From a virus, in IMG/VR virus record IMGVR_UViG_3300031857_000135, positions 2,747 to 66,746 of that record: a stretch of 64,000 nt of DNA, one strand, 5' to 3'. The notes beneath the pieces were generated by a model that made no database searches, had not been told where the DNA came from, and saw only the letters and a list, made by a program, of their open reading frames with translations. The position numbers and the translations under genes were made by a program. This document shows, one piece after another, positions 6 to 57,152 of this stretch; position 1 is the first letter of the stretch, and every line of letters begins with the position of its first letter.

Positions 6-365
6 ATGGCAGCAGCCCTTCCTACCGATGACGTGGTGGAAGCCCTGTTCCTAATGGACGAACGGGCGGGACTTCTAAACCGCTACGGTGCGAACCTGCC
101 GGATCCAGTTCTCTGCGTCTACGGGGCAGAGAAGTCGGCTGAGTATTCCTGGAATCACGGCGGGGATTACGTCACTGCTTCTATGTTGATGCGCTATTCG
201 GGCAGCACAGCGGTCGAGGCGATGGAGGATGTGTTCTCTGATGACGTGATGAAGAGGTTCAAGGCGGATCCAGTAGGAGCGTTCCAGAAGATGCCGCTCG
301 AGCAGCAGATCTTGGTCTCACGCATGGCGTCCCAGTCCAGGGATACGAACAATGGCGGGTACTGA
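6..365 (+). CDS. C-terminal part of a hypothetical virion-associated protein (probably truncated by the window edge)
   Basis: Open frame at the window start; overlaps the next gene; contains EKSAE (KxA motif). Confidence 0.6.
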   Translation: MAAALPTDDVVEALFLMDERAGLLNRYGANLPDPVLCVYGAEKSAEYSWNHGGDYVTASMLMRYSGSTAVEAMEDVFSDDVMKRFKADPVGAFQKMPLEQQILVSRMASQSRDTNNGGY

Positions 366-2244
366 GTTTAAGACGTCAACCTCACATCCACTCACACTCC
401 TGCGCTCGTACATCCGAACCTTCGGATCAGAAGCGCTGGAGTGGGAGCCATTCGTAGTTAAGAAGGCGCTGGAAAAGAGACTGACATTTTCTCTACCAAG
501 AGTAAACTTTCTTAAACTCTTGGCTGCAATTTCAGTCGCAAATCATGATCAGTTCTGGTCGTCTTGGGAAACCTTTCATACGGTCTCTCAAGCACTGGCT
601 GGAAAGATCCCATCTGTTTCGCACATCGATAACCAGTCTGTTTCAGACTTAATGATCGCCGTAGATGCCGCGCTACGGATTCGCAAGGATCTGGGCTCAG
701 TGGGTGACATACCTCCATTCTCTGAGGAGGTAACTCGCTACATGGCGGCGCAGCTTCATGAGTCTGGGATCTGGTATGTACCAGAGCCACTTGAGTTTTT
801 AAATCCACTGATTTCTGGCGTGACGCAGGTTTGTGGTGAGTGTGGCAACGAAGAGCAGCCGAAAGAGGACGGGCTCTGTAGTTACTGCACTGACAGATAC
901 AATACCGACAGTCTTCTGAAGATGGAACCAGATGAGGAGTTAAAAAAGAAATTCAATGGATCTAAGGTTAAGGTTACTGTTAAGTTTCCAACTGCTGGAG
1001 TTCAGAAGTCTTTAGTTCGCGCCCTAACGCGCGGAGGGGAGACACTTCGAGAGACAGAGGATGATATCTGCGCTGCTAGAATTTTAGAGGGAATAAGAGA
1101 TCTTTCTGCGTATACTGCTGAGTTAGAAGTACAGACTAAAACAGCGGGCCTGGCAACTGTTGCAGGAACTCAAAAGGCTATTGCAACACATAATGCGTTT
1201 AATCCGGACTCCCCTATTGAGTTCAATATACCTGAATTACCAAAAACGAAAGAAGAACAAAATCAACAACCTCAACTAAAGCCACAAAAACCCACAATAC
1301 CGCCTAAAAAGAAAGCTCCTGGTATAGAAAAGTATATCAATCCTCTTAGTTTAGGAGGGACTGCACTATTAGCGGGAGGGTTACTTCGTAGTCCAAATGC
1401 CGGAAAATTTCTCACGGCAGCTAAGGAGGTAGTAACCAAACCTGTCACATCAATCGGCCGTTCTATGCGAGCTGGAGCTAACTACGTCGGTCCTGGCGCT
1501 GACGAGTTTGCTAGACAAGCTGCACAATCAAAGCGCGTAGAGATGATGGGCGAGACATTACGGCAGGCGAACCTCGGTGCTCAGGCAGGCGGAAAATCAC
1601 ATGTAACCGAATTTGAGGCGTTAACAGGGGGACCCGAGGGTAAAACACTTGTTCAAAAGTTGCGTAAATCCGGCTTATTGAGCGCTGGAGAGAAGACCTA
1701 CGATAATGTAAATATCGGATGGGGACTTTCGAGAAGGCTGAATTCTTTAGTGCGAGAAATGGATGCTGCCTCTGCAGCAGGTCGTACCGTGGACTATAAG
1801 AAACTAGAGGGTGCTTACAATGACTTGATTAATGCAGCCAGAAGGCAAGGAAGACCAGCTTCGAGAGGTATTAGTTACTACCTCCCGGGCGAGCGAGCTA
1901 TTGAGGTTGGGGCCCCCGTTCTTACAGGCGCAACCGAGCTCGCCACTAGTGAGGATCCAGATACCGGAGAGGCACGTAGTCTCTCGGAGAGAATTGCAAG
2001 GGGTGTAGCTGCGGGCGGCATCACGGCTGCTACTGGAGCATTGTTTGCCGGCAGAAACCTCGGACTTAGTAAGAAAAACCTGCTTACAGGTGCAGATAGA
2101 TCTACCTTTAGTGCCAAGGGGTTAGTCCCTGCCGCTGCTGGTATGGCAGTAGGCTCGACCCTTGAGAACATCGGTGCCGATGTTGTGGGTGGTGGCACTA
2201 AGCTGGTTGATTCTGCCTTTGGTCAGAGGAAGGAACAGACATGA
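352..2244 (+). CDS. Hypothetical head-associated protein: N-terminal domain with Zn ribbon, then low-complexity Gly-zipper cargo after KTAG
   Basis: 630-aa ORF; CGECG...CSYC; composition changes after QTKTAG (~1140); Gly/Ala-rich hydrophobic segments at the C-terminus; stop overlaps the portal start (ATGA). Confidence 0.75.
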   Translation: MAGTEFKTSTSHPLTLLRSYIRTFGSEALEWEPFVVKKALEKRLTFSLPRVNFLKLLAAISVANHDQFWSSWETFHTVSQALAGKIPSVSHIDNQSVSDLMIAVDAALRIRKDLGSVGDIPPFSEEVTRYMAAQLHESGIWYVPEPLEFLNPLISGVTQVCGECGNEEQPKEDGLCSYCTDRYNTDSLLKMEPDEELKKKFNGSKVKVTVKFPTAGVQKSLVRALTRGGETLRETEDDICAARILEGIRDLSAYTAELEVQTKTAGLATVAGTQKAIATHNAFNPDSPIEFNIPELPKTKEEQNQQPQLKPQKPTIPPKKKAPGIEKYINPLSLGGTALLAGGLLRSPNAGKFLTAAKEVVTKPVTSIGRSMRAGANYVGPGADEFARQAAQSKRVEMMGETLRQANLGAQAGGKSHVTEFEALTGGPEGKTLVQKLRKSGLLSAGEKTYDNVNIGWGLSRRLNSLVREMDAASAAGRTVDYKKLEGAYNDLINAARRQGRPASRGISYYLPGERAIEVGAPVLTGATELATSEDPDTGEARSLSERIARGVAAGGITAATGALFAGRNLGLSKKNLLTGADRSTFSAKGLVPAAAGMAVGSTLENIGADVVGGGTKLVDSAFGQRKEQT

Positions 2245-4313
2245 ATGTCGTCACTAGCGAAGTAAACCGATTCAATCCCCGCCCTGTTACCGCAGAGGGA
2301 GGGAGAGGTTTCGGTATTCGCTATCCTTCCCCCTTCTTCGATATTTCTCAGCAATTCCTACCTGCGAATCAGCATGAACTTCACAAGTGGTGTAGGTACT
2401 ATTTTTTAACAAATCCAGTGATTAATGCAGCCTGTTCCAAGATGGCGGAATACCCCGTTACTCCGCTTGTGTTCTCAACGGAAGATCCCGAAATAGTTAA
2501 ACTTTACAAAGGTATTGAGGATCATCTTAAGCTTCGGTCATTTCAGGTCGAAGTAGGGCTTGATTACTTCGTTTATGGTAACGCTTTTGTTTCCGTATTC
2601 CTGCCATTTGAGAAGTACCTTATCTGCAGCTCTTGCGGCGCTCGGTATCGCGCGAAGACCAATCGGTTTCGGTACAAGTGGCGTGACTCGAGGTTCTACA
2701 TCCATAAGTGCGACTGCGGGCATCAGGGCTATGCGAAGCAGCAGGATGTCTATATTCGCAGCTTCCGGGAGATCAGACTTGTTCGCTGGAATCCCGAGAA
2801 CATTGACATTAAGCACAATGAGATAACTGGTAAAACGAAGTATTATTTTAGATTACCTAAGAGTGTGATTAATGACATTAAAATCGGAGATTGTGACGAG
2901 ATTGAATCTCTGCCGCTCGAGTTCTTAGAGGCTGCGCGCGCAGGTAAGTCCCTCCTCTTCTCAGAGGACAACCTTTATCATCTAAAGCGCCCTACCATCG
3001 CGCAAAAGGATCAGGGCTGGGGGACCCCTCTCATCTTCCCGCTCCTGAAGGATGCCTTTTACTTACAGGTAATGAAGAAGGCGAACGAGGCGATCCTCAT
3101 GGAGAACATCGTTCCCATGAGAATGATCTTCCCCGGTCAGAATACTGGAGGAAACGAAGGTCCGTATGGATCCTACAATCTGACAAACTGGAAACGCCGG
3201 ATTGATGAAGAAATCAATATGTGGAAAAGGGACCACAATTATATTCCCGTGCTTCCCGTAAACATCGGATTTCAGCAAATCGGAGGACAGGGGAGATCAT
3301 TGCTGCTGTACCAGGAGATGAGACTTCTGGCAGAGCAGATGCTTGCTGGAGCGGGAATCCCCGTCGAGTTCATCTTCGGAGGACTTCAGTGGTCAGGATC
3401 GAGTACGTCGCTCCGTGCCCTCGAGAACATGTTCCTTGGATACAATAAGCAGCGGCATGAGCTTGTGAATGTATTCATTATGAATAAGATTGCAGCATTT
3501 ATGCAATGGCCGAAGGTAGTTTGCCGTTTTGATAAATTCCGTATGGCAGATGATCTTCAGCGCAGCATGTTCTATCTGCAGCTCAATCAAGCACAGAAGA
3601 TCAGCGATCATCGACTCATGGAAGAGCTCGGCGAGGACTTCGACCTCGAGGCAGAGCGCATGGGCCGCGAGATCAAGAAGCAGTTGCAGTCCAACCGCAA
3701 GATGCAGGTGGCATCCGCTGACATCCAAGGCGAGGCACAGCTGCGCACATCTCGCTACCAGGCCAAGGCCCAGGCAATCACAATGAAGGCTCAGGGCCAG
3801 GCTCAGATGGAGATGCAGGCTGCTCAGATGCAACAGCAGCAACAGATGCAGGCCCAGCAGATGCCGCAGGACCCCAATGCGCAGATGGCAGCGCAGCAGG
3901 GCGCTCAGCAGCCCGCGCAAGATCCAAACGCGCAGCAGGCACCCGTAGAGCAGGTACAGGGCGTACCCGAAGGCGCAACTGTCTATCAGGAGAATGCAGG
4001 AGCACCTAATGAAACGGCTATGCCGACAGCTATGGCTGGCGTGCAGTCTCAGATTCAACCCGGATCTGGTGGAGTTGATCTGCGCTATGTCGCTCAGAGA
4101 GCTGCCTCTTATTTCCGTACGCTAAAAAGAGAGCAGGGTGAGGACGCGATGTATCAAGCACTACAACAGATGCAGACGGAGAATCCTCCTCTGTACCAGC
4201 TCGTAGTGCAGCTAATGAACGACAAGGGATCCGCAGTCAACCCGCTTGATGGGATGAAGAACCCCGCTCCTTCTGGAACACCGCAGGCAGACCCCGGACG
4301 GCAGGTCGGCTGA
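2241..4313 (+). CDS. Portal protein with inserted Zn ribbon and Gln-rich C-terminal tail
   Basis: Portal-like motifs (YYFLTNPVINAACSKMAEYP, DYFVYGNAFV, YHLKRP...GWGTPLI, AGIPVEFIFG); position in the head cluster. Confidence 0.8.
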   Translation: MNVVTSEVNRFNPRPVTAEGGRGFGIRYPSPFFDISQQFLPANQHELHKWCRYYFLTNPVINAACSKMAEYPVTPLVFSTEDPEIVKLYKGIEDHLKLRSFQVEVGLDYFVYGNAFVSVFLPFEKYLICSSCGARYRAKTNRFRYKWRDSRFYIHKCDCGHQGYAKQQDVYIRSFREIRLVRWNPENIDIKHNEITGKTKYYFRLPKSVINDIKIGDCDEIESLPLEFLEAARAGKSLLFSEDNLYHLKRPTIAQKDQGWGTPLIFPLLKDAFYLQVMKKANEAILMENIVPMRMIFPGQNTGGNEGPYGSYNLTNWKRRIDEEINMWKRDHNYIPVLPVNIGFQQIGGQGRSLLLYQEMRLLAEQMLAGAGIPVEFIFGGLQWSGSSTSLRALENMFLGYNKQRHELVNVFIMNKIAAFMQWPKVVCRFDKFRMADDLQRSMFYLQLNQAQKISDHRLMEELGEDFDLEAERMGREIKKQLQSNRKMQVASADIQGEAQLRTSRYQAKAQAITMKAQGQAQMEMQAAQMQQQQQMQAQQMPQDPNAQMAAQQGAQQPAQDPNAQQAPVEQVQGVPEGATVYQENAGAPNETAMPTAMAGVQSQIQPGSGGVDLRYVAQRAASYFRTLKREQGEDAMYQALQQMQTENPPLYQLVVQLMNDKGSAVNPLDGMKNPAPSGTPQADPGRQVG

Positions 4314-5047: not shown

Positions 5048-5053
5048 TTATAC

Positions 5054-5080
5054 TTATGACCTCACTTCGGAGAAGTTTTA
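5054..5080 (-). promoter_or_regulatory. Putative phage promoter (TAAA-N15-GGTCATAA on the - strand)
   Basis: GTCATAA motif shared with sites upstream of other - strand units; ~44 nt upstream of an ATG (5016) that has a GGAGG RBS. Confidence 0.55.
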
Positions 5081-8000
5081 TGTCTAACATGAACCCGCTC
5101 GAGAGTCACAAGCTGCTCGTTGCCAAGACAAAGGAGGCGATCTCTTCGCATTTCCCGATCGAAGGCAACAAGCACAAGCTCGAGCTAGTTCGCATTGAGA
5201 TTGAAGATGAGTCGGACAAGGGCTCGGCTCAATTCAACCCGGCTAACTACAATAGTCAGATTGATGCCAGGCTAAATGATCGTACCTGGGGTCCAGATAT
5301 TGTTGGTGTATTTAAGCTAACAGATAAGGCATCTGGAAAGGTACTTGATCAGCGCTCTCGTACTCTTGGAAAATTGCCGAAGGTCACCACGCGCTACAGC
5401 TACATCATCAACGGTAACGAGATGCAGCTGGATGGTGTGTTTCGGTTGAACCCAGGCGCTTACCACGCAGAGGCACAGAACGGAGACCTGCTTGCCAAGT
5501 GGAACGTCGCCGCTGGTAGCAAGGTCGGTTCGTTCGATATCTACATTGAGCGTAGAGATCCTAAGAAGCTGGGCTTGATGACGATGAGCATCAAGAGCAG
5601 TGGAACTTCTACAGTTGATATCCCGATCTACCCAGTCCTCAGAGCCCTCGGTGTCGAGGATGCTCAGATTCAACGTGCTCTTGGGGACAAGCTTTTTGAG
5701 GTAAATAGAGACAAGAGCAAGATTAGCGATATCTTAAAATTTCATAAGGCCATCGAAGGTAGGGGCGCCTCCGACTACAAAGAGCCTTCGGTTTCGGAGG
5801 CCGCGAAATTCGCGAAGCAGACTTTTGAGTCTGCAGAAGTTAGCCCTCAAACGATGAAGTCGGCCTTTGGGAAGGAGTTTACCTCTATTACTGGAGAAGC
5901 ACTTCTTCTATCTGCGAAGAAGCTCGTAGACATCAGCCGAGGAGATGTGCCCGAAGATGACCGGCAGTCCCTGTCAAACAAGCGGCTATACGGAATTGAA
6001 GACTTCGTCTCTGAAGAGCTTACACGCGGTAAGACAATTTACGCGCTAACTCGAAAGATTAGAAATAACGTAGATAGAAAGACCACGATTCAGGACATTA
6101 TTCCTGCATCTGCCGCGGGGTACGGAGCTGCAATCCTGAAGCCTTTTAAGGCGGGGCAGTTGCCCACCCAGACAAATCCTCTTCAGTTTTTATCAAACCA
6201 TACGAAGACGACGATTCTGGGAGCTGAGTTCGGTGGAATCAAAGGAGAGAACGTCAATCTCCTCCCCGACAAGATGATCAACCCGTCGCATCTCGGCCTT
6301 CTGGACCCACTTCAAACACCCGAGAGTCAGCAGACTGGTATTCATCTGCACATCCCTCTTGGTGCGCAGAAAGTGGGCCATGACCTTGTTGCGCAGGTAG
6401 TCAATGTTCGCACTGGAAAGATCGAGCGTAAGTCGGCTGCTGATCTCGAGCGCGCCGTAGTCGCCTATCCAGATCAGGTCAAGATTCAGAAGAACTCAGA
6501 CGGCACTGTTAAAGTCACACCATTAGAATCCAATGTCATTGTCTACGATAATGATCGTAATACCTCCAAGAGACCGTGGAAGGACGTAGATTACGTTCTT
6601 CCCTCTGCCAAGCTTCTTTTTGCAGCTAGCGCAAACCTGGTTCCGTTTGTCCAGAACGACAACGGAAACCGCGCGATGATGGCTACCAAGCATCAGGAGC
6701 AGGCTGTCGGCCTCAAGAACCGAGAGGCACCGCTGGTCCAAACTGCGGCAAGTGGAGGACTCGCGTATGAGGATCTAGTAGGCGGTACAGCCTCGATCTC
6801 CTCAAACGCAGACGGAGTAGTCAGCTCTGTGAATAAGGAGGAGATTGTTGTTTTAGGTACCGACAAAAAGAAGTATAGACATGCATTGTACAATAACTAC
6901 CCTTTGAATGGGGCTAAGCATATGCTCCATTCTCAGCCGGTAGTAAAAGAGGGAGACAAGGTAAAGAAGGGTCAGCTCTTAGCAGACTCTAATTTCACTA
7001 AAAATGGTAAGCTCGCATTAGGCACGAATCTAAGAGTCGCGTATATTCCCTATCGCGGCTACAATTTCGAAGATGGTCTTGTGATCTCGGAGTCTGCGGC
7101 AGAGAAGTTGGTCTCGAGCCATCTTCATTCCGTAGAAGTAGAGATGCACCCGAATGTAGTCGTCAATAAAAAGATGTGGCGTCAGTATGCCGGAATGGTC
7201 AAAGCGACGCCGGCAATTCTCCAGAAGCTCGATGATGACGGAATTGTGCGAGTTGGGCAGAAAATAGAGCCAGGCGATGTCCTAATCGCAAAACTTCAAA
7301 AGCAGTCCCTCTCCAAGGACACCGAAGATATTCGTAAGAGACTAAAGGGCGCGGTTCAGGATTACGTAGATTCTTCGGTGAAGTGGGATCACGAGTACGA
7401 TGGAGTAGTTGCGCGAGTTGTAAACAACGGACGCAAGATTGCCGTCTTCATCAGAACTGAGCAGACGATGGAGGTCGGAGACAAGCTCTCTGGACGTCAT
7501 GGTAACAAGGGAATTGTCACTAAAATTCTCCCCGACGATAAGATGCCCAAGGACAAGAACGGGGAGCCAGTTCACATTCTTATGTCTCCTGCTGGCATTC
7601 CGTCCCGTATGAATCCGGGTCAGGTTCTTGAGACCGCTGCTGGAAAGATCGCACTAAAAACGGGTAAGCCATTTGTAGTTAATAATTTCGATGCAGGTAC
7701 AGACTATTCTCAGCTTGTAAAAGATGAACTAAAGAAGCACAAGATTTCAGATACTGATGAGCTCTTCGATCCCGAGACTGGAGAGAGCTTAGGTCAGGTT
7801 TTGACTGGGATGCAGTACATCCTCAAGCTTGATCATCAGGCTGAAAAGAAGATTTCCGCGCGAGGTGGTGGTTTCGGCTACGCATACAAGACGACCGGAG
7901 AAGCCTCGCAGGGATCTGGACTTGGGGAAGGCGGTCAGCGTATCGGAGGCCTCGATACCTACACGCTTCTTGCGCACGGAGCGAAACACAACCTCCGAGA

Positions 8001-11000
8001 GATGCAGACCTACAAGTCCGACCGAGAGCAGGCGGAAGATGTCTGGACTCGCATCATGCGGGGAGAGCGTCCTCCCCCGCCCAAAGTTCCTCGCTCTATG
8101 GAACAGTTCACGCACTATATGCGCGCAATGGGAGTTTACACCGAAAGAAAGGGGCGCGAATACTCCCTTATGCCCATGACGGATAAGCAGACCAAGGCCC
8201 AAAGCTCTGGAGAGCTGGCATTTCCGGAGAGGACCCTCGCAGCCAAGGGATCACTCACAAAGGAGGAGCGCGGAGGCCTTTTCGATCGAACCAAGACCGG
8301 CGGGCTTGAAGGGACCAAATGGTCACATATGGATCTGGGTATGCGGATCCCCAATCCCGTCTTTGAGGAGCCCGTACGTTCTCTTCTCCGCATGCCTAAG
8401 CCGGAGTTCCAGAGACTTCTGACGGCTGAGGGAGCCGTGGGAAGGAAGTCTGGCTTCCAGGTAATCGAGGAGAAGCTTCGAGCCCTTGACGTGAAGAAGG
8501 AGCTAAAAATTGCCGAGAAGGAATTAGATGAGGCCAATGAGAACGAACTGAATGTCGCCTATAAGCGGGTTCGGTATCTCCGCGCATTGGATGAGCTGGG
8601 CATTAAGCCAGTAGATGCCTACACCAACGAAGTCTTGCCTGTACTACCTCCGACCCTTCGAAGGGTGAGTATCGGATTTGACGGGACTCAGATCATTGAT
8701 CCCGCTAACAAGATGTACGCGATTATTGGACAGATGGTAAAGCAGCACGAACAGGCAAAAAAGGAAAATTTACCGATTGGAGAGATTCAGAAGCTCCAGG
8801 CAGAGATTTACGCAACAACCAAAGCTCTCCGAGTCTCAGGCATGCAGATGGAGGGCAAGCAGGTCCCTTCATTAATGGACAAGCTCACAGGGTTGAAACA
8901 GCCCAAGGGCTCATTCTTCCAGTCAGGAGTTTTGGGTAAACGGCAGGATCTCTCAGGTCGCTCAGTCATTACACCAGATCCTGAGATGCCCCTTGATGAG
9001 GTCGGCGTTCCTCGCGAAATGCTGATGGAGATGTACAAGCCATTCGTCATCAAGGAGATGTGGAGAGGCATGGGCCGGGCGACATCTCCAGGTGATGCAC
9101 GCCTGAAGATTAAACAAAATCACCCTGCTGCCAACGAAGCCCTCGAACGAGTTGTCCGTGATCGTCCAGTAATGATGAAGCGGGATCCAGCGCTTCACAT
9201 GTTCTCGATTATGGCCTTTAAGCCCAGAATCATTGAAGGGAAGTCAATCAAGATCCATCCTCTAGTGACCGGAGGTTTTAACGCAGACTTTGACGGCGAC
9301 ACGATGGCTATGTACGTCCCCATTACGGAGGGGGCTGTACAAGAAGCCAAAGCGATGATGCCGTCGAAGAATCTGTTTTCTCCGACTAGTGGCGGTCTGA
9401 TGACTACTCCAAGTCAGGATTCTGTACTTGGTATTTACCAGGCAACTGAGTGGGGCAAGAAGGTTTCGGGCAGCTTTACTGTAGATGAAGCCATCAAGCA
9501 GCTTAAAGCTGGGAAGCTCAAGTCATACGATGTGATCTCGGTCGTCGGCATGAATAAGCCTACTACTGCGGGTCGTTTGATGATTAACAATACTCTTCCA
9601 ACAGAGTTTAAGAATGATGAAGATCTTCTTTACAACCCAGAATTTAGAATGGCTAAGGGCGGCATGAAGCGATTTGCTACCCGCATTGCTCGAGCACAGC
9701 CAGAAGAGTTTGCGAAGATGATCGACGACTGGAAAACCATTGGTTTCCAGCTCGCGTTTAAAAATGGTTCAAGCGTAAAGGTTAATGACTTCCACGATGG
9801 GTTTAAGCTGCGGGATCAAGTACTAAAGAAGTACAAGACAGAAGAGAACAAGATTCTCAGCGGTCCTGGCTCTCGTGCAATTAAGAATGAAAAAATAGTG
9901 TCTTTGTATCAGAAAGCACAGAAAGAACTGAAGCAGGTTGGAGAGACGAAATATAATGCCTCAAAAGATAACGGCATGTGGGAGTGGGCACGTTCTGGAG
10001 CTAAGGGAGATTGGAACCAGTTCGGTCAGATGGTGATGGGCCCAATGCTGGTCCAGGATCCGATGAACAAGACGGTTCCTTTTGCCATCACCAAGTCCTT
10101 TGGTGAGGGACTTCCGGTATCGCAGTACTACACCGCACTTCATGGAGCCCGGAAGGGCACCATTGATCGCGCATCAGCGACGGCAAAGCCAGGTGCGCTG
10201 ACCAAGGAGCTTATTAACACTGTTATTGACAACACCATTAAGTCAAGAGACTGCGGCACTAACCGCGGGGCTCTTCTCTCTGCAATGGAGTCGGACATTG
10301 AAGGCCGCTTCCTCGCTGGAGAAGTTCCGCTGAAGGACGGACCTACTCTTGCGAAGGGAACTCTAATTACGCCTCAGATTAGATCAAAAATTAAAAATGA
10401 CGGCCCAAGAAAGGTTCTTGTTCGTTCTACTCTGTACTGCAATGAGACGAAGGGGATCTGCGCTACTTGCTACGGACTGAGTGAGCGAGGGGCCTTGTAT
10501 CCGGTGGGTACGAACGTCGGAATCATTGCAGGACACGCGCTGGGTGAGCCCATTACCCAGATGCAGATGAGAACGTTCCACACCGGCGGTGTTGGCGGGA
10601 CTAGTGGAGTCAGCGATTATTACACTGCAGCAGAAGACCTCTTCAAAGTACCTCAAAAGCTCAAGGGCGCAGCCACACTAGCTACCGTGAGCGGGAAGAT
10701 CGAAAAGATCGAATCAGATCCCCTTGGCGGTAAAATTGTAACTATTGACGGAAGGAAGCACGTCGTACCATTTACAACGCCTCTTCTCTCCAGCATTCGT
10801 GTCGGTGCTGAAGTAGAGAAGACAGACGCGCTATCTGAGGGTCGCAAAAACCCGCACGATATTCTAAGTATCACAAACAACATGTCAGCGGTCCGCATGC
10901 ACTTGTCGGATTCTTTGAACGAGCTTTACACAGAGACAACGGGAAATGAACGTAGAAGAAATATTGAGACCGTTATCCGCGCGATGACGGATCTCACGAG

Positions 11001-11433
11001 AATTGATGATCCCGGAGATGACACCACATACCTACGAGGTCAGTTAGTTCCATTGTCTGAGATCGAGCTGAAGAACAAAGAACTCCGTGCTATGAGTAAG
11101 CGCGAGATTAAGCACTCGCCCCAGCTCAAGGCCATGAACAAGATGCCGCTTGCTGCCCAGGAAGACTGGATGGCGCGCCTAAACTTCCAGCGCCTTCAAG
11201 AGACGTACACTGAAGGTGCCGCGCAGAACTGGAAGTCTGATATTCACGGTCATCCCATTGCGGGTATCGCACACGGCGCAGAGTTCGGTCTCGAGCCTCC
11301 TGGCAGTCAGCCTTTACCCGCTGCTCCAAAAATCACGGATCGCGTGGTAAACATCCCGAAGGTTGTACCTCCGGGGAATCCAAAACCAACCCTTCCGTCT
11401 CAGAACAAGCCCGGCTTCTTCTCTTTCCTGTGA
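5080..11433 (+). CDS. rpoBC: Fused DNA-directed RNA polymerase beta-beta' (single polypeptide)
   Basis: beta motifs (TPESQQTG, GYNFEDG, GDKLSGRHGNKG, GIPSRMNPGQ, GGQRIG) followed in frame by beta' motifs (LGKRQDLSGRSVI, RDPALH, NADFDGD at 9280-9300, GARKG, GEPITQMQMRTFHTGG); ATG 5080 has a GGAGA RBS (ORF track start 5056). Confidence 0.95.
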   Translation: MSNMNPLESHKLLVAKTKEAISSHFPIEGNKHKLELVRIEIEDESDKGSAQFNPANYNSQIDARLNDRTWGPDIVGVFKLTDKASGKVLDQRSRTLGKLPKVTTRYSYIINGNEMQLDGVFRLNPGAYHAEAQNGDLLAKWNVAAGSKVGSFDIYIERRDPKKLGLMTMSIKSSGTSTVDIPIYPVLRALGVEDAQIQRALGDKLFEVNRDKSKISDILKFHKAIEGRGASDYKEPSVSEAAKFAKQTFESAEVSPQTMKSAFGKEFTSITGEALLLSAKKLVDISRGDVPEDDRQSLSNKRLYGIEDFVSEELTRGKTIYALTRKIRNNVDRKTTIQDIIPASAAGYGAAILKPFKAGQLPTQTNPLQFLSNHTKTTILGAEFGGIKGENVNLLPDKMINPSHLGLLDPLQTPESQQTGIHLHIPLGAQKVGHDLVAQVVNVRTGKIERKSAADLERAVVAYPDQVKIQKNSDGTVKVTPLESNVIVYDNDRNTSKRPWKDVDYVLPSAKLLFAASANLVPFVQNDNGNRAMMATKHQEQAVGLKNREAPLVQTAASGGLAYEDLVGGTASISSNADGVVSSVNKEEIVVLGTDKKKYRHALYNNYPLNGAKHMLHSQPVVKEGDKVKKGQLLADSNFTKNGKLALGTNLRVAYIPYRGYNFEDGLVISESAAEKLVSSHLHSVEVEMHPNVVVNKKMWRQYAGMVKATPAILQKLDDDGIVRVGQKIEPGDVLIAKLQKQSLSKDTEDIRKRLKGAVQDYVDSSVKWDHEYDGVVARVVNNGRKIAVFIRTEQTMEVGDKLSGRHGNKGIVTKILPDDKMPKDKNGEPVHILMSPAGIPSRMNPGQVLETAAGKIALKTGKPFVVNNFDAGTDYSQLVKDELKKHKISDTDELFDPETGESLGQVLTGMQYILKLDHQAEKKISARGGGFGYAYKTTGEASQGSGLGEGGQRIGGLDTYTLLAHGAKHNLREMQTYKSDREQAEDVWTRIMRGERPPPPKVPRSMEQFTHYMRAMGVYTERKGREYSLMPMTDKQTKAQSSGELAFPERTLAAKGSLTKEERGGLFDRTKTGGLEGTKWSHMDLGMRIPNPVFEEPVRSLLRMPKPEFQRLLTAEGAVGRKSGFQVIEEKLRALDVKKELKIAEKELDEANENELNVAYKRVRYLRALDELGIKPVDAYTNEVLPVLPPTLRRVSIGFDGTQIIDPANKMYAIIGQMVKQHEQAKKENLPIGEIQKLQAEIYATTKALRVSGMQMEGKQVPSLMDKLTGLKQPKGSFFQSGVLGKRQDLSGRSVITPDPEMPLDEVGVPREMLMEMYKPFVIKEMWRGMGRATSPGDARLKIKQNHPAANEALERVVRDRPVMMKRDPALHMFSIMAFKPRIIEGKSIKIHPLVTGGFNADFDGDTMAMYVPITEGAVQEAKAMMPSKNLFSPTSGGLMTTPSQDSVLGIYQATEWGKKVSGSFTVDEAIKQLKAGKLKSYDVISVVGMNKPTTAGRLMINNTLPTEFKNDEDLLYNPEFRMAKGGMKRFATRIARAQPEEFAKMIDDWKTIGFQLAFKNGSSVKVNDFHDGFKLRDQVLKKYKTEENKILSGPGSRAIKNEKIVSLYQKAQKELKQVGETKYNASKDNGMWEWARSGAKGDWNQFGQMVMGPMLVQDPMNKTVPFAITKSFGEGLPVSQYYTALHGARKGTIDRASATAKPGALTKELINTVIDNTIKSRDCGTNRGALLSAMESDIEGRFLAGEVPLKDGPTLAKGTLITPQIRSKIKNDGPRKVLVRSTLYCNETKGICATCYGLSERGALYPVGTNVGIIAGHALGEPITQMQMRTFHTGGVGGTSGVSDYYTAAEDLFKVPQKLKGAATLATVSGKIEKIESDPLGGKIVTIDGRKHVVPFTTPLLSSIRVGAEVEKTDALSEGRKNPHDILSITNNMSAVRMHLSDSLNELYTETTGNERRRNIETVIRAMTDLTRIDDPGDDTTYLRGQLVPLSEIELKNKELRAMSKREIKHSPQLKAMNKMPLAAQEDWMARLNFQRLQETYTEGAAQNWKSDIHGHPIAGIAHGAEFGLEPPGSQPLPAAPKITDRVVNIPKVVPPGNPKPTLPSQNKPGFFSFL

Positions 11434-11440
11434 GGTTCCC

Positions 11441-11848: not shown

Positions 11849-12916
11849 GTGTCAAGTAAAAGTTTACGACCAGTAAAGTCCTCTATTTTCCAGGGGCGCA
11901 TCGTTGCAGTTGACGGTGCGCGCTGGACTTGTTCGGTATCGTGCGAAGCAATTAAAAGGTCATTTGCTGAAGTTGCAATTCCCTCGCTCTACGCATCAAT
12001 GTCGGGAGAGGGAATTCATTACATGCCCGAAATAGGTACTATTTGCTATGTATGCGTTCCTTCTGATGAAGGAATTCCGTTCTTACTAATGTCTGCCCCC
12101 TCCGTGTCCTCTTCATCCAAAGACGGACAGCCAGGGTCGTTTCATTCTAATAGACCCTATTTAAATCCTGGAGATATGGTTGTTCTTACAAAGGATGGAA
12201 ATGGATTTATTGCTCGTAGAGGTGGCGTTACTGAGTTTAGGGGGTCCGCACTATCAAGAATAGTTACTAATCCTTTTACAAATCAAATTGCTGCTTTTGC
12301 AGAAAACTGGAAGGTAGAGACCTTTGGCGGGACTTCCGAGTGGAGTACAAACTTTCGGGAAGAGAGCTCCTATGGGGAGCTGACATGCTCTCTCGAGACG
12401 ACTGTTAGGGAGTTTGTTAGCTCTCCAAGTTGGTCGGTCAGGACGATCGAGGGTGCCACTGATATCCGAGTAGAGCTAGACGGCCCTGTTCCTGCTCCGC
12501 CTCTTGTAGACACTCCCGTAACCCTGAATGTCGAAGGACCTCTTGGAACAATAATTCCATCTATCGTAACTATAAAAAAACCGGCAACACTCGATAGTGC
12601 GCAGGCTGTCTTAGTCGTTCAAGTCAATTCTGATGAGACCCTGCCGCTACCCGTACCTTCGGCAAGTCTCGCAGTTTCCCGAGCGGGCGATGCGCTGATT
12701 ACAACTGCGGGTAAGATACGTGTCGTTCAAGAGGTAGATGTTGGCGCTGCCAAGTCGGTGTTACTCGGCACTGACTTTTTGAGTAGACTCTCTGGAGTTC
12801 TGGAGGAGATCGTAGAGATCGCCTCTACATCAGGAAGTCCTACTCCAGAGACCGCTGCTCTCATTGCTGAGATAGCATCCGGTATTCATCTCTCGAAAAC
12901 TCTCGAAGTCGAGTAG
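11849..12916 (+). CDS. Baseplate spike/Gp5-like protein (N-terminal OB-fold-like region)
   Basis: GRIVAVD...GIHYMPEIGTICYV resembles gp5/gpV OB domains; followed by short beta-strand repeats. Confidence 0.5.
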   Translation: MSSKSLRPVKSSIFQGRIVAVDGARWTCSVSCEAIKRSFAEVAIPSLYASMSGEGIHYMPEIGTICYVCVPSDEGIPFLLMSAPSVSSSSKDGQPGSFHSNRPYLNPGDMVVLTKDGNGFIARRGGVTEFRGSALSRIVTNPFTNQIAAFAENWKVETFGGTSEWSTNFREESSYGELTCSLETTVREFVSSPSWSVRTIEGATDIRVELDGPVPAPPLVDTPVTLNVEGPLGTIIPSIVTIKKPATLDSAQAVLVVQVNSDETLPLPVPSASLAVSRAGDALITTAGKIRVVQEVDVGAAKSVLLGTDFLSRLSGVLEEIVEIASTSGSPTPETAALIAEIASGIHLSKTLEVE

Positions 12917-18975: not shown

Positions 18976-19013
18976 CTGTGACTCCTGTTATGCTCATCGT
19001 GAGCATAAAACTC

Positions 19014-19040
19014 TTATGACGAGGATTCTATGAGTTTTTC
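19014..19040 (-). promoter_or_regulatory. Putative phage promoter (GAAAAACT...GTCATAA)
   Basis: Motif 45 nt upstream of ATG 18975, followed by hairpin TTATGCTCA-CGA-TGAGCATAA. Confidence 0.55.
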
Positions 19041-20754
19041 CGACCCCCTTTCCGGTCCCTGGGACTACACTCCCCCCAGAGGAGATGCTGTTCGTGTTAC
19101 GGAGGAGGATTTACGAAATGCACAAATTCCATTAACTCCTTCTCAATTTATTGAAACGACGATGATGATGCCGAACCCCCATACTCGGCAGCTGGAAAAC
19201 TTCTCTTTTGCGGAAAGAAACTACCTAAGAGATATCTACGATATACGAGCACCTCGAGTTCTTTTAATGTGTGGAAGACAGGTTGAAAAAAGTACTACAT
19301 TAGGAAATAAGACACTCTCCTATGCCTGCTTGATTCCACACTTCCGTATTCTGTACGTTTCTCCTTCCAGTCAGCAGACCAAGGAGTTTTCTAAGACTCG
19401 CCTCAAGGAGCCTCTTGAGACCTGTCCAGATTTAAAAACTTGGTTTCCACAGCACTTAACTGATAACGTGTTTGAAAAGAAGGCCATTAATCGAAGTGAA
19501 ATCAAACTTCGGTATGCTTTCTTAAATGCTGACAGATGCCGTGGGTTGTCAGCAGATCTTATCTGTATGGATGAGTTCCAAGATCTTCTGTTAGATAACA
19601 TCCCTGTTATTGAAGAGGCGGCCTCTCATAGTCCTTTTAAGTGGTTTATTTACAGTGGAACTCCAAAGAGCCTTGACAACCCCATTCAGGTCTACTGGGA
19701 TGCGTACTCAACTCAAAATGAGTGGGCGGTTCCTTGTGACCGGCACGGTCTCCCCAATAATCCAGGATCGTGGCACTGGAACATACTCGGAGAAAAGAAC
19801 ATCGGAATTAAAGGGCTATCCTGCGACAAGTGTGGAGAGCTGATTAAGCCTGATCACCCACTGGCTCAGTGGGTTCGAACTGGAAATCCAAATCCGAAGT
19901 TCGATACCTTTGAAGGCTTTCGGATTCCGCAGCTGATGGTTCCTTGGCTCGAGTGGAGCAACATCCTTACCAAGTACAACCAGTACCCTCGAGCCAAGTT
20001 CTACAACGAGGTTTTAGGTGCCAGTTTTGACTCTGGCCAAAGACCTCTTACGCAGAGCGATGTACTCGCGAACTGCGATTCTGAGTTCTCTTTTAAAGCA
20101 GATAAGCTAAAAGAAGTATTTCCTAAACTGAGAGGAAAGCAGGTATACGCCGGTATTGACTGGGGACAGGATTCAAATAACTCGTACACAATTCTCATGA
20201 TTGGGGCTTACATAGATGGTTTCTTCAAGATCATCTTTGCCCACAGATTCTCTGGCGCAGAAGCAGAACCTAAAGAACAGATTACCAAGATTAAGAAGCT
20301 ACTGGCAGCGTTCGAAGTCACTCGCGTAGGTGTGGACTACGGTGGTGGGTATTGGCCGAACGACGAACTTCTACGGCTATACGGTAGCCAGAAGATCGTG
20401 CGGTATCAGTATTCTACGCCTCAAACTTTGATGAAGTTTGATGCCGCGAAGGGACGCTTTCTCATTCATCGATCTGAGGTAATGAGCGCGGTATTTAATG
20501 CGATCAAGCGCAGAACTGTTTTCAGATTTCCGAAGTGGTCGGAATTTGGAAACCCATTCGGCTCTGACATGTTATCCATCTTCTCCGAGTACAATGAGCG
20601 TACTCGGATGACGGAATATAAAAAGTCTCCTAATACCACAGATGACAGTTTTCACGCACTACTACTTTGTTTTATCGTTTCAATGATCGATAATCCGCGC
20701 CCAGATATTATTGTTCCAAGTGCTAAAATTGATCGCGAACTGGACGTAGACTGA
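19030..20754 (+). CDS. Terminase large subunit (GpA-like)
   Basis: Walker A-like GRQVEKST, Walker B ICMDEFQD, SGTP motif, nuclease AGIDWG and DDSFHA. Confidence 0.88.
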   Translation: MSFSDPLSGPWDYTPPRGDAVRVTEEDLRNAQIPLTPSQFIETTMMMPNPHTRQLENFSFAERNYLRDIYDIRAPRVLLMCGRQVEKSTTLGNKTLSYACLIPHFRILYVSPSSQQTKEFSKTRLKEPLETCPDLKTWFPQHLTDNVFEKKAINRSEIKLRYAFLNADRCRGLSADLICMDEFQDLLLDNIPVIEEAASHSPFKWFIYSGTPKSLDNPIQVYWDAYSTQNEWAVPCDRHGLPNNPGSWHWNILGEKNIGIKGLSCDKCGELIKPDHPLAQWVRTGNPNPKFDTFEGFRIPQLMVPWLEWSNILTKYNQYPRAKFYNEVLGASFDSGQRPLTQSDVLANCDSEFSFKADKLKEVFPKLRGKQVYAGIDWGQDSNNSYTILMIGAYIDGFFKIIFAHRFSGAEAEPKEQITKIKKLLAAFEVTRVGVDYGGGYWPNDELLRLYGSQKIVRYQYSTPQTLMKFDAAKGRFLIHRSEVMSAVFNAIKRRTVFRFPKWSEFGNPFGSDMLSIFSEYNERTRMTEYKKSPNTTDDSFHALLLCFIVSMIDNPRPDIIVPSAKIDRELDVD

Positions 20755-25492: not shown

Positions 25493-25510
25493 ACTCAAGT
25501 GAGAACACAA

Positions 25511-29061: not shown

Positions 29062-29076
29062 TTGCGAGGACTGCAA

Positions 29077-30075: not shown

Positions 30076-31209
30076 ATGGATTACTCTGCTGAAATGGTGA
30101 ATTCGGGCTTCATCGAGCGCCTCGAGACTGAGGGACCGACGAAGACCGCTGCCGCCTCACTGAACTACATCAAGGACCGCCTGCGCGAGTCCAGCTTCAC
30201 CGACATGATCGTTCCGAACGAGCGTGTTGTGCGTGGCGACCTCCAGCGCAGCACTGAGCACGACACCCTCGTGAAGATCGTCGATATCGAGCCCGGTAGC
30301 CGGGCGATGTCGATCAACTTCCGCGGGCAGCCCACTGCTCAGTACGTGAATGGCAAGCGGTATGCCATCGGCTTCTACACCATCTCGTCCCTCAAGTTCG
30401 AGATCGTGGAGCAGGAGCTTATGGCCTACGAGATGCCAATCACCCGTATCATTGAGGAGAACAGCCTCAAGGATATGGTTGAGGTGAAGGACCGCGAGTT
30501 CCTGAACCACGTCGAGTCCTGCGTCAATGCGATGCAGGCCGAGGGCAACAGCGGTTCTTCCGCGTTCTCGGTAATCGGCGGTCAGGTCACGATCTCGAAG
30601 ATCAAGGGTGTGCTGGCTCAGCAGTCGGGCGGCAATGCCACTGACTACACGACCTACGCCATCCAGCGTCCCGATATCGTCAACATCAAGAAGCTGCTCA
30701 AGCGGCAGATCACTGTGGGTGGTGAGACCATCCGCGCTGGTCGCCTGCGTCCGGCTCTGATGCTGATGACCGAGACCGATGCGGACGACTTCGATCAGTG
30801 GACCCATGAGGACTACGGTGATCGTCTTCAGAGCGAGACCGCTCTTGATGGCTACACCTACAACAAGGTCCTGGGTCTGCGGATCATCCGCACGATCAAG
30901 AACGACATCCTGCGTGAGGGCAACGTCTACGTCTTCACCTCGCCCGAGTTCTTCGGCCGCAACTACACCCTGAACGATGTGAAGTTCTACATCGACAAGG
31001 TTGCGAACCGGATCTTCTGGCAGGCGTGGATGGACGTCGGCATGGGCTTCGGCAACATCGCTGCGGTGGTGAAGCTCGAGCTCTACCCGGGCGATGCTTC
31101 GAACACGGCTGCCAACAGCTCCGTGATCCCGGTTGAGGAGAGCGACATCGGCGCCCTGAACAACAAGGTTGCCGACGGCCTCACCTTCCCGAGCATCAAC
31201 GTCTTCTGA
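30076..31209 (+). CDS. Major capsid protein
   Basis: 377 aa; strongest GC3 codon bias in the window; AGGAGA RBS; follows protease/scaffold genes and precedes a terminator; N-terminal TKTAA site. Confidence 0.85.
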   Translation: MDYSAEMVNSGFIERLETEGPTKTAAASLNYIKDRLRESSFTDMIVPNERVVRGDLQRSTEHDTLVKIVDIEPGSRAMSINFRGQPTAQYVNGKRYAIGFYTISSLKFEIVEQELMAYEMPITRIIEENSLKDMVEVKDREFLNHVESCVNAMQAEGNSGSSAFSVIGGQVTISKIKGVLAQQSGGNATDYTTYAIQRPDIVNIKKLLKRQITVGGETIRAGRLRPALMLMTETDADDFDQWTHEDYGDRLQSETALDGYTYNKVLGLRIIRTIKNDILREGNVYVFTSPEFFGRNYTLNDVKFYIDKVANRIFWQAWMDVGMGFGNIAAVVKLELYPGDASNTAANSSVIPVEESDIGALNNKVADGLTFPSINVF

Positions 31210-35341: not shown

Positions 35342-38300
35342 ATGGCAAGTGAAAACCGCCCCGGCGTCATCGTAGTTCAGGAGCTCCGCGAGACTCCTGC
35401 TGCAGTTGCCACGCCCACGCTGAACCCCGTGGTTGTTGCTCCGTGCTACCAGATCATCCGGGCTGTGGATGCCTCCGGGTCTATCAACTCCGATGCGGAG
35501 TACACGACCCAGCGCTACACACAGGAGTCTCTGACGATCACGCAGGCAGAGTTTCCTGACCCGCGCGATAACATCGATGAGATCAACATCGATGAGACCC
35601 AGGTCGGTGCTCGCCTCTTCTACGCCGGTGCCCTGACTACGCTTCCGCGGGGCAGCCATGGCAGCACAGGTTCCGCGTTCCTGGCTGCTGCAAACTTCGC
35701 TACTCGGGCCACTGTTGTATTCAACTCAGGTAGCTCGACCTTCGCATTTGGTCCTAGCACGCAGCTGCTGTCTATCAAGGCAAACAGCGCCAATAATCTC
35801 AATCCTTCGGTAGTTGCCTTCACAGGCACTATGACAGCTGCTGAAGTAGCTGCATCTCTTGCCGCCGTTCCAGGTATTGTCGCTTCAGTAGTTAGCGATA
35901 CTGTCGTAGTCAAGAGCCGTACCTTCGGCGCTGCGTCTTCTCTGTACCTGACTGGCAGCGCGCTTCCGGTTCTTACTGCGGTGATGCTCACTCCACTCGT
36001 AGCATCATCAACGTATAGACTTGAGGGCTCGGGTTTCAGAGGTCAGGATGACCTCGACGGAGACCTGACTACGCCATGGATTGAGTTTCATGTCGGCAGC
36101 TACACTGTAGGCGGAGTTGCTACCCCGATTGCTGCTCCGTTTGCCCTCGAGGACAAGGACGGCGCCACGGCGACTCCTGCTGCGATGACCTTCACTGGTT
36201 CAGGAGCGTCGGTTCCCCTCAAGGCGGCAACTGCTACCACTCCTGGAGATGAGTTCTGGGCTGACGGAACTCGCGTGAGTGAGGCATCTGTGACCGCCGT
36301 TGAGGAGGCCCGCTTTAAGCTGGGTATCCTCGACGCAACTCGGTCTACCTTCGACGCGGACGGTAACCTCGTCTCCGCTATCTACTCGACGGTAGAGGTG
36401 AACACGCCCTCAAGCAGCGTTCCGTTTGCTCCGGTTTACGCGTACTTCATCGCGAACAACCTGGTCTGGGGCTCGGTCACTCCTGCTCCAGAGGCCGCGG
36501 AGATCACAGGCATCGATACGAATGCCCTCGCTGCGCAGCCTGCACAGCTAGTGGGGACCGCTTTCGATCCCACCGAGATCACATCACTTGCGGGAGGCAC
36601 ACTGACCTTCCGTATTGTTGAGGATGGGGTCACCCTTGATGACGTGACTCACACCTTTACGTCTTCGGCAACGAGCCTCAGCGCAGCTCTGACTGCTCTG
36701 AATGCCGATGCGAATCTGTCGGCGCTCACGTTCGCCACTGGAGACGACGGCTCCGATAAGATTCTGGTTGTTAAGACTATAAAGAACGGTGCTGATCAGA
36801 GTGTCACGTTCCTCGGAACTGCCTCTACCAGCGTAGGTGCTTCATTCGGTCTCACTTCCGGTGATACTGCTACGGGAGTTGATGTTGAGTTCGCAGAGGC
36901 CGCATCTCTCCAGTCTGACGCTGCCGATCTGGGTGCAGCATCAGGTAATCTCATTGTCAGTGTTACCGTCACTATCGGAGATGTAACTTACGAGTGGGAT
37001 CTTCCCGAAGTAACCAGCTACACAACTGCGACTGCGCTGGCCCAGGCCCTTGCAAGTGGGGCAAGTGCTGTCGGAGGTAAGTACCCTGTTTACTTCAAGA
37101 ATGATTCTGCCCTTCCGCATCTTCTGAATCTAAGTGCCACTGGAGCAGATTCCGCGGCTCGGATTACTTTTGAACTTACTCGAGGCGGGGATGGTATCGA
37201 TCTAGCGCTGACCTCAGATAATGACACTGTTATCGAATTCTCGACGGCTTTATCAGACACCGATGCTGGTGCTGATCTCCTCAAAGGCACTCGTCTCGAG
37301 TTCACCCTGGACAGCAATCCGCACGTCTACGAAGTTGACTTCACCAGTAACTCGCTCCGGGAGGCAGTTGATGCCATCAACGAGGCTGTCGGCGGCGCAG
37401 TAGACATCGCGAGCGAGGATGGTCTGACTCTTGTGATGACCAGCGCGTTCTCTGGCGCGGCATCTGCTGTCAATCTTGATGACTCGAGCCCTGCTTACAG
37501 TGTGCTGTTCGATACTGACAGCGCTGCGGGTTCCGGTAGGCCGAATCCCAGCTTCTACATCGATGGCGAAGGCACTGCGCACATCGGAGCACATGCACTT
37601 CGCAACCGCAGCACAGGCCTACCCCTCGACCTGAGTTCAGGCGGGGCTCGGGTTTATCTCGATTATGTCGGTCTGCGGCTGGATGTCACCGCAGCAGCGT
37701 CCAGCCCATCGCTCCTGACCTTCGACGACGTGGCGACGATGGATGCGGCAATCGGGCCGATCTCCCTGGAGAACCCGCTTGCGCTCGCCTGCTTCCTCAT
37801 GCTGCAGAACACCCCGACACAGGCTGTGTCGGCCCTGGGCATCGAGGCTGTGAACGACGCAGCTCCAATGGGGACGACGACAGCGCACCTCAATGCGCTC
37901 AACTACCTCGAGAGCAAGGATGTCTATGGCATCGCGCCGATGACGGATGATCCTTTCGTCCAGCAGCTCTACTCGGCGCACGTGGAGAGCATGTCCACGC
38001 CTGAGCAGCGTGGTGAGCGCATCTGCTTCCTCTGGCAGGGCGTTCCCACTCGCGCACAGGACACGTCCATCCTGGCTGGATCGGATGCTGAGGTAAACGG
38101 TACAGCCAACAGCATCACGCTGGGTTCAACTCCGATTGAGGGTCTTGCCGCGCTGGGTCTGGATCCTTCGGAGCTGAGCCTTGACGATAATGTCTACCTC
38201 GAGCTGGTGGTTGTCCAGCTCGGAGAGACCAGTGTCTTCAAGTTCTCGGTCTCCCAGGCAAACGGCACTGCGCTGATCCTTAGAAGCTCCTTTGCCTCCG

Positions 38301-57092: not shown

Positions 57093-57125
57093 GACTTGGC
57101 CCTCCTATAGTCAAGGCCACAATAC

Positions 57126-57152
57126 TTATTACTGCTTTTAGTGTAATTTAAA
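57126..57152 (-). promoter_or_regulatory. Putative phage promoter (TAAATT...GTAATAA)
   Basis: ATACTTATTAC matches ATACTTATGAC (5050-5060) at 10/11 positions; 40 nt upstream of ATG 57092. Confidence 0.5.

Follow-up and report, generated by a model that had tools for sequence, protein, structure and literature searches.

A fused beta-beta' RNA polymerase shared across a large family of phages, with most likely delivery by the virion alongside a phage sigma factor

A single-chain RNA polymerase at 5080-11433

The window analysed here is a 64,000-nucleotide stretch of viral DNA (IMG/VR record IMGVR_UViG_3300031857_000135, positions 2,747 to 66,746), whose plus-strand gene at 5080-11433 codes in one stop-free frame for a single-chain beta-beta' RNA polymerase (RNAP) of 2117 aa. 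The enzyme is an intact, family-wide single-chain RNAP of bacterial type that belongs to a large phage lineage, and it is most likely delivered from the virion together with the phage's own sigma factor. A preliminary description of the same DNA had read the gene as one uninterrupted open reading frame (ORF), had placed the join of the two subunits near 8140-8200 and had reported an intact NADFDGD motif, bridge helix and trigger loop. These readings held: the frame translates without a stop, its domains are colinear with the E. coli subunits, the junction maps to about 8131-8181, and all three catalytic elements were located (Table 1).

Pfam domains of beta (Rpb2_6 at 585-939 and Rpb2_7 at 959-1028, in ORF numbering from 5056) are followed by those of beta' (Rpb1_2, _3 and _5). 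Aligned to a family profile built from 68 members, the protein is colinear with residues 49-1340 of E. coli beta and then with 29-1347 of beta'. In the same alignment, the counterpart of beta 231-421 is reduced, and nothing matches the E. coli beta inserts near 938-1040 and 1128-1177, beta' 949-1130 or the last ~60 residues of beta'. The best matches in PDB are bacterial beta' chains (E 1e-115). Judged by its sequence, the protein is almost certainly an active, DNA-dependent RNAP of the bacterial two-barrel type.

At its longest, the ORF would open at 5056, but this start was rejected: all close homologs begin at the position of 5080, and 2 additional bases follow 5079 in two further assemblies, for which reasons translation likely starts at 5080. 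The strands that meet at the junction are said to pair with each other in the cellular enzyme. An assembly artefact at this place, a concern of the preliminary description, is largely refuted, because the junction is spanned without a gap by contigs from two further public runs (X5 record 9, 4900-10892; X11 record 5, 7795-9392); in two runs with raw reads, no reads fell on the stretch. DNA nearly identical to 5000-11500 of the window occurs in 20 listed runs from 16 studies, with the labels freshwater, lake water, fungus or simply metagenome; three of the runs are perhaps the source data.

Fusion as a family trait

All ten close IMG/VR loci contain the gene as a single ORF of 2108-2126 aa with 70-84% identity and the same gene order. 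Two protein searches, which favoured fused forms by their length window (1164-3705 aa) and a junction-spanning query, returned 265 homologs. The beta barrel, junction and catalytic region stand together in every one of them, all six test regions are present in one chain in 249, and the junction spacing from G1018 to G1044 is 27 residues in 217 (range over all 265, 26-35). In addition, viral contigs were scanned with a profile, and 64 loci were kept from the best 80 of 287 matches. Five of these represent another phage RNAP type with separate genes, and 59 belong to the family: 39 have a full ORF, in 13 the split comes behind the catalytic barrel, 4 are truncated at contig ends and 3 are interrupted elsewhere. 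In 58 of the 59, a single ORF spans the junction; the remaining locus stops before reaching it. That beta is fused to beta' is thus a trait of the whole family. In three loci (L142, L148 and L152), the RNAP gene is interrupted at unusual places, for which introns, frameshifts or another genetic code may be the cause. Many RNAPs of the family reach 2300-4700 aa, several with LAGLIDADG or intein matches in Pfam (P0034, P0039, P0051, P0052 and others). An intein is also present in the DnaB helicase of the relative G001 (L021:17900-20000), and the portals of G005 and G009 lie in unusually long frames.

The family is large, as the best 150 matches among representatives at 50% identity are all members. 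It has cultured members in Salmonella phage Arash (OQ632216) and Vibrio phages D69, D148 and D181. Residues 19-1488 of the window enzyme, junction included, are covered by Arash gp206 (1525 aa) with 32% identity, and residues 1491-2070 by gp216. The preliminary description had asked for the novelty of the enzyme to be checked; it turns out to be no one-off, its family being very large and including cultured phages. No description of a fused beta-beta' phage family came up in the literature searched, where subscription papers were mostly outside coverage. Among 79 loci kept of at least 624 from GTDB genomes, the sole family-like match is L031 (RGVZ01000317.1), a 3.8-kb contig in a bacterial metagenome-assembled genome that is probably a phage contig. 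The ESM Atlas contains clusters of fused Rpb2 and Rpb1 under automatic names, one of them from Campylobacterota.

A portal homolog precedes the RNAP gene in 47 of 61 loci within the flank that was fetched. The placement of the gene between portal and baseplate genes, as first described, stands for the portal, a homolog of Arash gp204. The baseplate side is only a lead: the conserved downstream gene falls in an ESM Atlas cluster with Phage_base_V on 21% of its members, and it has no Pfam or PHROG match.

Kept catalytic core and lost parts

The catalytic Asp triad is conserved in 258-265 of the 265 homologs, K810 in 263 and R843 in all; the other beta lysine, the bridge helix and the trigger-loop His are conserved across the family. 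By contrast, the N-terminal zinc finger of beta' is deleted in 265 of 265. What remains is a scar of 16-26 residues, compared to 50-51 in 66 bacterial beta' chains. At least three Cys occur in this region in none of the homologs, at least four in 60 of the 66 bacterial chains. The earlier characterisation as a streamlined RNAP therefore stands, with the zinc finger and several lineage inserts missing. The positions D516, H526, R529 and S531, which we take to form the rifampicin pocket, are all substituted (Table 1).

Origin of the family

Trees were calculated from 1336 columns aligned to a family-built profile, with 91 rows in FastTree and 36 in IQ-TREE, as fast runs with support from the Shimodaira-Hasegawa-like approximate likelihood ratio test (SH-aLRT). 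They were run without an archaeal outgroup, Helicobacter, Wolbachia or published mReC sequences. Both trees put the family outside the sampled bacteria, whose monophyly has an SH-aLRT of 100, and the family stem measures ~1.0 substitution per site. Thirteen of 14 family rows form one clade with the Arash/D69 enzyme (SH-aLRT 100), and L161 lacks a supported position. Because the split members of the Arash type are nested among one-chain members (support 99.3 in IQ-TREE and 99.9 in the run for the test described next), the one-chain state looks ancestral. An approximately unbiased (AU) test with 2000 replicates and 10 forced placements rejected four of them (sister to E. coli, Firmicutes, Actinobacteria and Chloroflexi) and kept six (sister to Proteobacteria as a pair, to Bacteroidota, to the Planctomycetes-Verrucomicrobia-Chlamydiae group and to three groups of the candidate phyla radiation).

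It is scarcely credible that the gene is an assembly artefact or a recently captured cellular rpoBC fusion of the Helicobacter or Wolbachia type. Such fusions exist in cells, a fused cluster from Campylobacterota is in the ESM Atlas, neither Helicobacter nor Wolbachia is in the trees, and the AU test retains the six placements named. Nevertheless, the junction is bridged in independent assemblies, it is fused in all ten close and in 58 of 59 diverse loci, and the identity to bacterial loci is just 27-34%. Together with the long stem and the monophyly of the bacteria, this identity excludes a recent transfer from within one bacterial clade, which had been considered at first, as far as the trees can tell; an old origin inside Bacteria stays compatible with them.

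Alpha and omega

The preliminary description recognised no alpha, omega or sigma gene in the window, and our searches agree: none of the three was found in the whole 66,746-base contig, which is ~36% complete. Alpha was also absent from the relatives, with no match to PF01000 in 26 records and none to PF01193, or to PF01192 of omega, in 15, while the controls were found in 14 of 14. Among the records searched were 11 with a completeness of 90% or more, and two cultured genomes. Of the beta residues facing alpha, E1083, D1084 and F1221, which we presume to have this role, are retained in only 2-9% of the family. In E. coli, beta G1215 and R1216 contact R45 of alpha (PMC13202282). G1215 is present in 96% of 74 bacteria and in 3% of 264 family rows, R1216 in 59% and 2%, respectively. 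The suggestion that the enzyme may be alpha-independent is supported, though not proven, by the replaced contact residues and the absence of alpha and omega from complete genomes, and we consider alpha independence likely.

A hybrid core, made up of the chain and the alpha dimer (and omega) of the host and working with the phage sigma, is improbable. It would fit with the bacterial fold, which remains alignable in its entirety around both barrels, and with the part of the alpha-facing motif that is mostly kept in the family (D1214 96%, T1217 69%, G1218 68%). As only phage proteins were searched in the particle proteome of Arash (PMC10585845), host alpha could not have been seen there. However, the five alpha-facing residues named above are down to 2-9%, the non-virion RNAP of phiKZ works without alpha or omega (PMC8287921), and different alphas would need to be accommodated by a virion enzyme whose hosts are of different genera.

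A sigma factor in the relatives

A homolog of Arash gp10, a sigma factor, is encoded by G001 (E 9e-23), where it shows a Pfam match to Sigma70_r3 and a weak one to r4 and matches SigA and RpoS chains. Sigmas of this type are also present in G002-G004 and D69. Over all, 16 of 22 family records have a gp10-like sigma, among them all 11 with at least 90% completeness (one match being weak, E 2e-5), and none of four non-family phage records has one; the profile included three of its own hits (G001, Arash and D69). The six family records without it are 48-65% complete. As a correction to the preliminary description, the lineage does encode a sigma, outside the fragment analysed here. A negative result for G001-G004 with Pfam Sigma70_r2 was discarded as false, the family sigma having a diverged region 2. 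The gp10-type sigma gene sits in the tail module, and its product is altered in region 2.2-2.3: the WW dyad and the region-2.2 pattern, both retained in gp196-type sigmas, are missing from it. A second, host-like sigma with the WW dyad occurs in Arash, D69 and G013 (L012:5483-6520, L011:4819-5595 and L190, respectively).

On the side of the core enzyme, the clamp helices contact sigma domain 2 through residues known from bacteria (PMC10216364, PMC8321222). Five of these (R275, R278, I291, E295 and M298) are present in 96-100% of 71 bacteria and in 0-2% of the family, while N266, Y269, N276 and P288 of the same helices are kept in 68-99%. Because 74 of 399 highly conserved bacterial positions, about one in five, drop to 10% or less in the family anyway, single losses mean little, and the signal lies in their clustering at the clamp. 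The flap-tip contact residues are replaced as well, and the zipper motif is gone.

The RNAP likely partners with the phage sigma. The chain could instead initiate without a gp10-type sigma, by means of a host sigma, another phage factor or none, with the phage sigma redirecting the host enzyme like gp55 of T4. The replaced clamp and flap-tip contacts could indeed mean that sigma binding was lost altogether, and the zinc finger and zipper motif are missing, too. We regard this as quite unlikely, as the sigma accompanies the RNAP in all 11 near-complete genomes, both are found at equal spectra per residue in Arash particles (PMC10585845), and the gp10-type sigma is the altered one while some members have a second, host-like sigma.

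Probable presence in the virion

The preliminary description had called the enzyme possibly virion-packaged, which is supported indirectly by the portal-RNAP synteny in 47 of 61 loci and by the Arash particle proteome. In the latter, gp206 has the most spectra, gp216 and the sigma gp10 are listed as well, and the second sigma gp196 is absent from Table 2 (PMC10585845). Normalised by length, which was done for 20 of the 116 rows of that table, the unique peptides per 100 aa amount to 8.4 for gp206, 6.6 for gp216 and 10.3 for gp10, compared to 5.5 for the portal, 9.8 for the capsid protein and 0.2-1.4 for six metabolic or replication enzymes. The spectra per residue are 2.3, 2.0 and 2.0 for gp206, gp216 and gp10. 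By analogy with Arash, the RNAP is probably packaged in the virion of the phage analysed here.

Alternatively, the enzyme may be made during infection for middle or late genes, with the host enzyme reading the early genes, perhaps with a phage sigma, and with the gene lying among virion genes for regulatory or historical reasons. In its favour, the Arash preparation was not stringent: it came from a sucrose gradient and contained 116 phage proteins, and the authors allow for carry-over (PMC10585845). A host-like TATACT lies upstream of the RNAP gene, and each genome examined has one two-barrel RNAP region, which may have to serve later stages too. Such a role outside the virion is still unlikely, because the peptide density in Arash resembles that of structural proteins and is 5-40 times that of carry-over enzymes, and because both the synteny with the portal and the location of the sigma gene in the tail module connect the system to virion genes.

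The Arash helicase gp217 (L012:26088-27506) is encoded directly behind gp216 and reaches the same particle level as the RNAP chains. Homologs are present in G011, G012 and G014, and none was found in G001 or in the contig analysed here; gp217 is a possible RNAP accessory in part of the family. Repeated K-x-A-(A/S/G) motifs occur in many head-region proteins (up to 9 in 353 aa) and mostly not in replication and tail proteins; they are possibly a maturation-protease signal. As a sign of RNAP packaging, the K-x-A motif was dropped as unsupported, with a single match in 2125 aa.

Candidate promoters

A conserved word before the RNAP gene led us to a strand-biased octamer, GNNATAA(G/T), which stands before non-virion genes in most of the relatives examined. 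The top 8-mer of Arash is GGTATAAG, with 31 sites against 3.4 expected, 30 of them on the non-virion strand; in 27 sites, a ribosome site and a start follow within 70 nt (background 0.15). In G001, 19 of 22 GTCATAA(G/T) sites are on the non-virion strand, and 14 have an upstream A-tract (background 0.03). D69 has GTTATAAG 18 times in reverse and once in forward orientation, and enriched variants of the word were found in G008, G011, G012 and G014. In YerA41 and TM30, two phages outside the family, the word does not exceed the reversed-word control. Going by its distribution, GNNATAA(G/T) is probably the promoter used by the RNAP with the phage sigma. In the window, two of the three GTCATAAG sites precede minus-strand genes. 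The word GTCATAAT at 22309-22316 (minus strand) lies antisense inside a scaffold-like gene, at the same place as in G001, and may reflect coding constraint only.

The TATACT before the RNAP gene may itself function as a promoter. It also stands before virion-strand genes at 21905-21910 and just before the first gene of the window (genome position -764). With a ribosome site, it leans to the virion strand in G000, G001, G008 and G014 and does not in Arash, G011 and G012, and it is a candidate late promoter. In G014, the top 8-mer is CCTATACT (12 sites against 0.7).

Proposed mode of action

As the reading that we favour, and consider fairly probable as a whole, a virion-delivered one-chain RNAP without alpha and omega would transcribe non-virion genes from a private promoter together with a phage sigma. 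The chain would be produced alongside the virion proteins, enter the head and reach the host cell together with the DNA. It would fold and work without alpha or omega, with the covalent link taking over part of their role in assembly. Initiation would depend on a sigma-70-family protein of the phage (Arash gp10 type, ~230-280 aa, with domains 2-3-4). This protein would likewise be part of the particle, and its gene would lie in the missing part of the genome. Chain and sigma would read the GNNATAA(G/T) core, which takes the form GTCATAA(G/T) in this subgroup and frequently follows an A-tract, and would transcribe (early) non-virion genes on the opposite strand.

Several points weigh against this reading, beyond the possible carry-over in Arash, the restriction of its proteome to phage proteins, the kept alpha-facing residues and the general drift of conserved positions. 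The Arash RNAP shares just ~32% identity and has its beta' divided. The sigma gene lies outside the contig and is deduced from kin, the nearest being G001 with an RNAP of 84% identity, and phage sigma genes commonly serve the host enzyme (PMC7598289). As for alpha, just two contact residues (G1215 and R1216) were taken from a paper, and the contact of alpha R45 is reportedly absent in B. subtilis (PMC13202282). The promoter words were chosen per genome after inspection. The one in G008 has no strand bias (11 against 13), that in G011 a modest one, and G005 and G013 show no enrichment of GTTATAAG, the one variant covered there. The contig itself, which carries mostly virion genes, has 3 GTCATAAG sites against 1.05 expected and no excess at one mismatch.

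With slightly less than even confidence, we go further and propose that this phage lineage (genomes of ~160-210 kb) injects the smallest sigma-70-type holoenzyme known. It would consist of a beta-beta' chain and a phage sigma, lack alpha, omega and the zinc finger and be insensitive to rifampicin, and its drifted sigma-clamp interface would create an orthogonal system with the GNNATAAG promoter; the RNAP lineage may be as old as the split of the bacterial phyla or predate it.

Comparison with known systems

The closest known systems are gp206, gp216 and gp10 of Arash and the corresponding enzymes of D69, D148 and D181. They are of the same family, with the fused junction, the missing zinc finger and the RNAP gene behind the portal, and Arash/D69 phages share terminase, capsid, sheath, tube, protease and sigma with it. 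Their enzymes split beta' after the catalytic barrel (~residue 1490), whereas that of the window is one chain. The Arash paper names gp206 'beta' and gp216 'beta prime', with no mention of a fusion or an activity test in its available part (PMC10585845).

The mReC multisubunit phage RNAPs are alignable to cellular beta and beta', form a deep branch apart from bacteria and are encoded beside virion genes (Weinheimer and Aylward 2020, PMC7481178). The window enzyme resembles them in its alignability and gene surroundings and, in the best trees, also in its deep branch. In all 44 of the 234 supplement rows covered, however, beta and beta' of mReC are separate proteins, for which mReC membership asks at least 800 aa each, and their capsid and terminase belong to PF07068 (VOG11186) and PF03237 (VOG01069), whereas the capsid protein in the window has no Pfam match and the terminase belongs to PF05876 (compared by Pfam only). 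Set apart by subunit layout and by capsid and terminase families, the window RNAP is not shown to be mReC. YerA41 and RHph_TM30 encode bacterial-like RNAPs with 26-31% identity to it, but as separate genes among replication genes, on separate long branches and with no match to the portal, gp10-type sigma or promoter word. Together with the five split-gene IMG/VR loci, the YerA41 and TM30 enzymes branch apart from the family in FastTree.

The RNAPs of phiKZ and AR9 work without alpha and omega, and their virion enzyme makes the early transcripts (PMC7598289, PMC8287921, PMC13282480, PMC7824862). They differ from the one-chain enzyme of the window by their four or five polypeptides, two paralogous sets and lack of a sigma recognisable by sequence. 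The phiKZ-type families phrog_3295, 2987 and 3148 match the window RNAP with 52-119 bits, two bacterial-like families with 310-395. Both barrels in one chain, as here, are also found in crAss-like phages, SPbeta YonO and P23-45, some of them virion-borne, which form a second, highly diverged clade with RNAi polymerases (bioRxiv 10.1101/2022.12.01.518664). Unlike these, whose similarity to cellular enzymes is limited to the catalytic motif, the window RNAP has bacterial architecture, full-length colinearity with E. coli and a sigma-70 companion in its kin. The same join of the beta C-terminus to the beta' N-terminus exists in the cell enzymes of Helicobacteraceae and Wolbachia; those fusions are full-length, bear the zinc finger and are used with alpha, omega and sigma.

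With its bacterial architecture in one chain, a true sigma-70 partner and no alpha gene, the family fills the gap between phiKZ/AR9 (four or five chains, no recognisable sigma) and crAss/YonO/P23-45 (too diverged to align). With it, experiments can ask which functions really require alpha, omega and the beta' zinc finger, and it offers a two-gene orthogonal transcription system, with the cultured Arash as an experimental relative.

Other features of the window

The contig also holds protease and tube genes next to those collected in Table 1.

Table 1. Positions of RNAP elements, candidate promoters and other genes (window coordinates; amino acid substitutions in E. coli numbering).
Feature	Position	Strand	Remarks
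K-x-A-rich head-region proteins	-786..365 (genome coordinates, before the window); 14861-16366; 21988-23049; 23597-25492		
K-x-A-rich head-region proteins, continued	25499-26851; 27188-28846; 29062-29442; 30076-31209		
Portal	2241..4313	+	homolog of Arash gp204, E 7e-90
TATACT, -10-like	5049..5054	+	before RNAP gene; kept in 5/8 aligned close loci, variants in other 3
GTCATAAG, candidate promoter	5053..5060	-	upstream A-tract; points away from RNAP gene, towards small minus-strand ORFs
Beta-like part	5080..8151	+	residues 1-1024
Rifampicin-pocket region	6142..6222	+	D516T, H526N, R529K, S531T
Beta double-psi barrel motif GDKLSGRHGNKG	7477..7512	+	both catalytic lysines, K802 and K810
Site of E. 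coli beta G1215/R1216	7768..7782	+	P898/E899 here
Fusion junction	8131..8181	+	short K-G turn between the final strand of beta and the first one kept in beta'
Beta'-like part	8152..11430	+	residues 1025-2117
Scar of deleted beta' N-terminal zinc-binding domain	8275..8328	+	18 residues, no Cys
Clamp helices	8698..8829	+	core residues kept; R275, R278, I291, E295, M298 replaced
Catalytic NADFDGD	9280..9300	+	intact
Bridge helix region	10117..10245	+	from profile alignment
Second beta' zinc site	10252..10470	+	four Cys kept, each in 253-256/265 homologs
Trigger loop	10522..10593	+	large E. coli insert missing
Pro-rich C-terminal tail	11287..11430	+	replaces cellular beta' tail; variable among kin
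Conserved downstream gene	11849..12916	+	in 26/61 loci; baseplate-spike-like as a lead only
GTCATAAG	19013..19020	-	preceded by an A-tract; ORF 18418-18975(-) follows after ~40 nt; site shared with G001
Terminase large subunit	19030..20754	+	homolog of Arash gp1; PF05876, phrog_675
HTH_17 regulator	21306-21977	-	
Major capsid protein	30076..31209	+	homolog of Arash gp226, E 2e-29
Tail sheath	35342..39064	+	homolog of Arash gp236; phrog_279
ParB-like protein	46385-47218	+	
GyrB-like topoisomerase subunit	50623-52779	-	
GTAATAAG, one-mismatch candidate	57125..57132	-	before ORF 56184-57092(-); weak alone
ThyX	58434-59324	-	

Three small ORFs at 11363-11845 (plus strand), 47392-47763 and 47826-48173 (both minus strand) share a similar MxKxAAY...HPLW start and vary among kin in number and place. 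Two pairs of an AAA ATPase and a vWA protein (MoxR-like; DUF2201) are encoded on the minus strand at 42749-45711 and 59509-61850.

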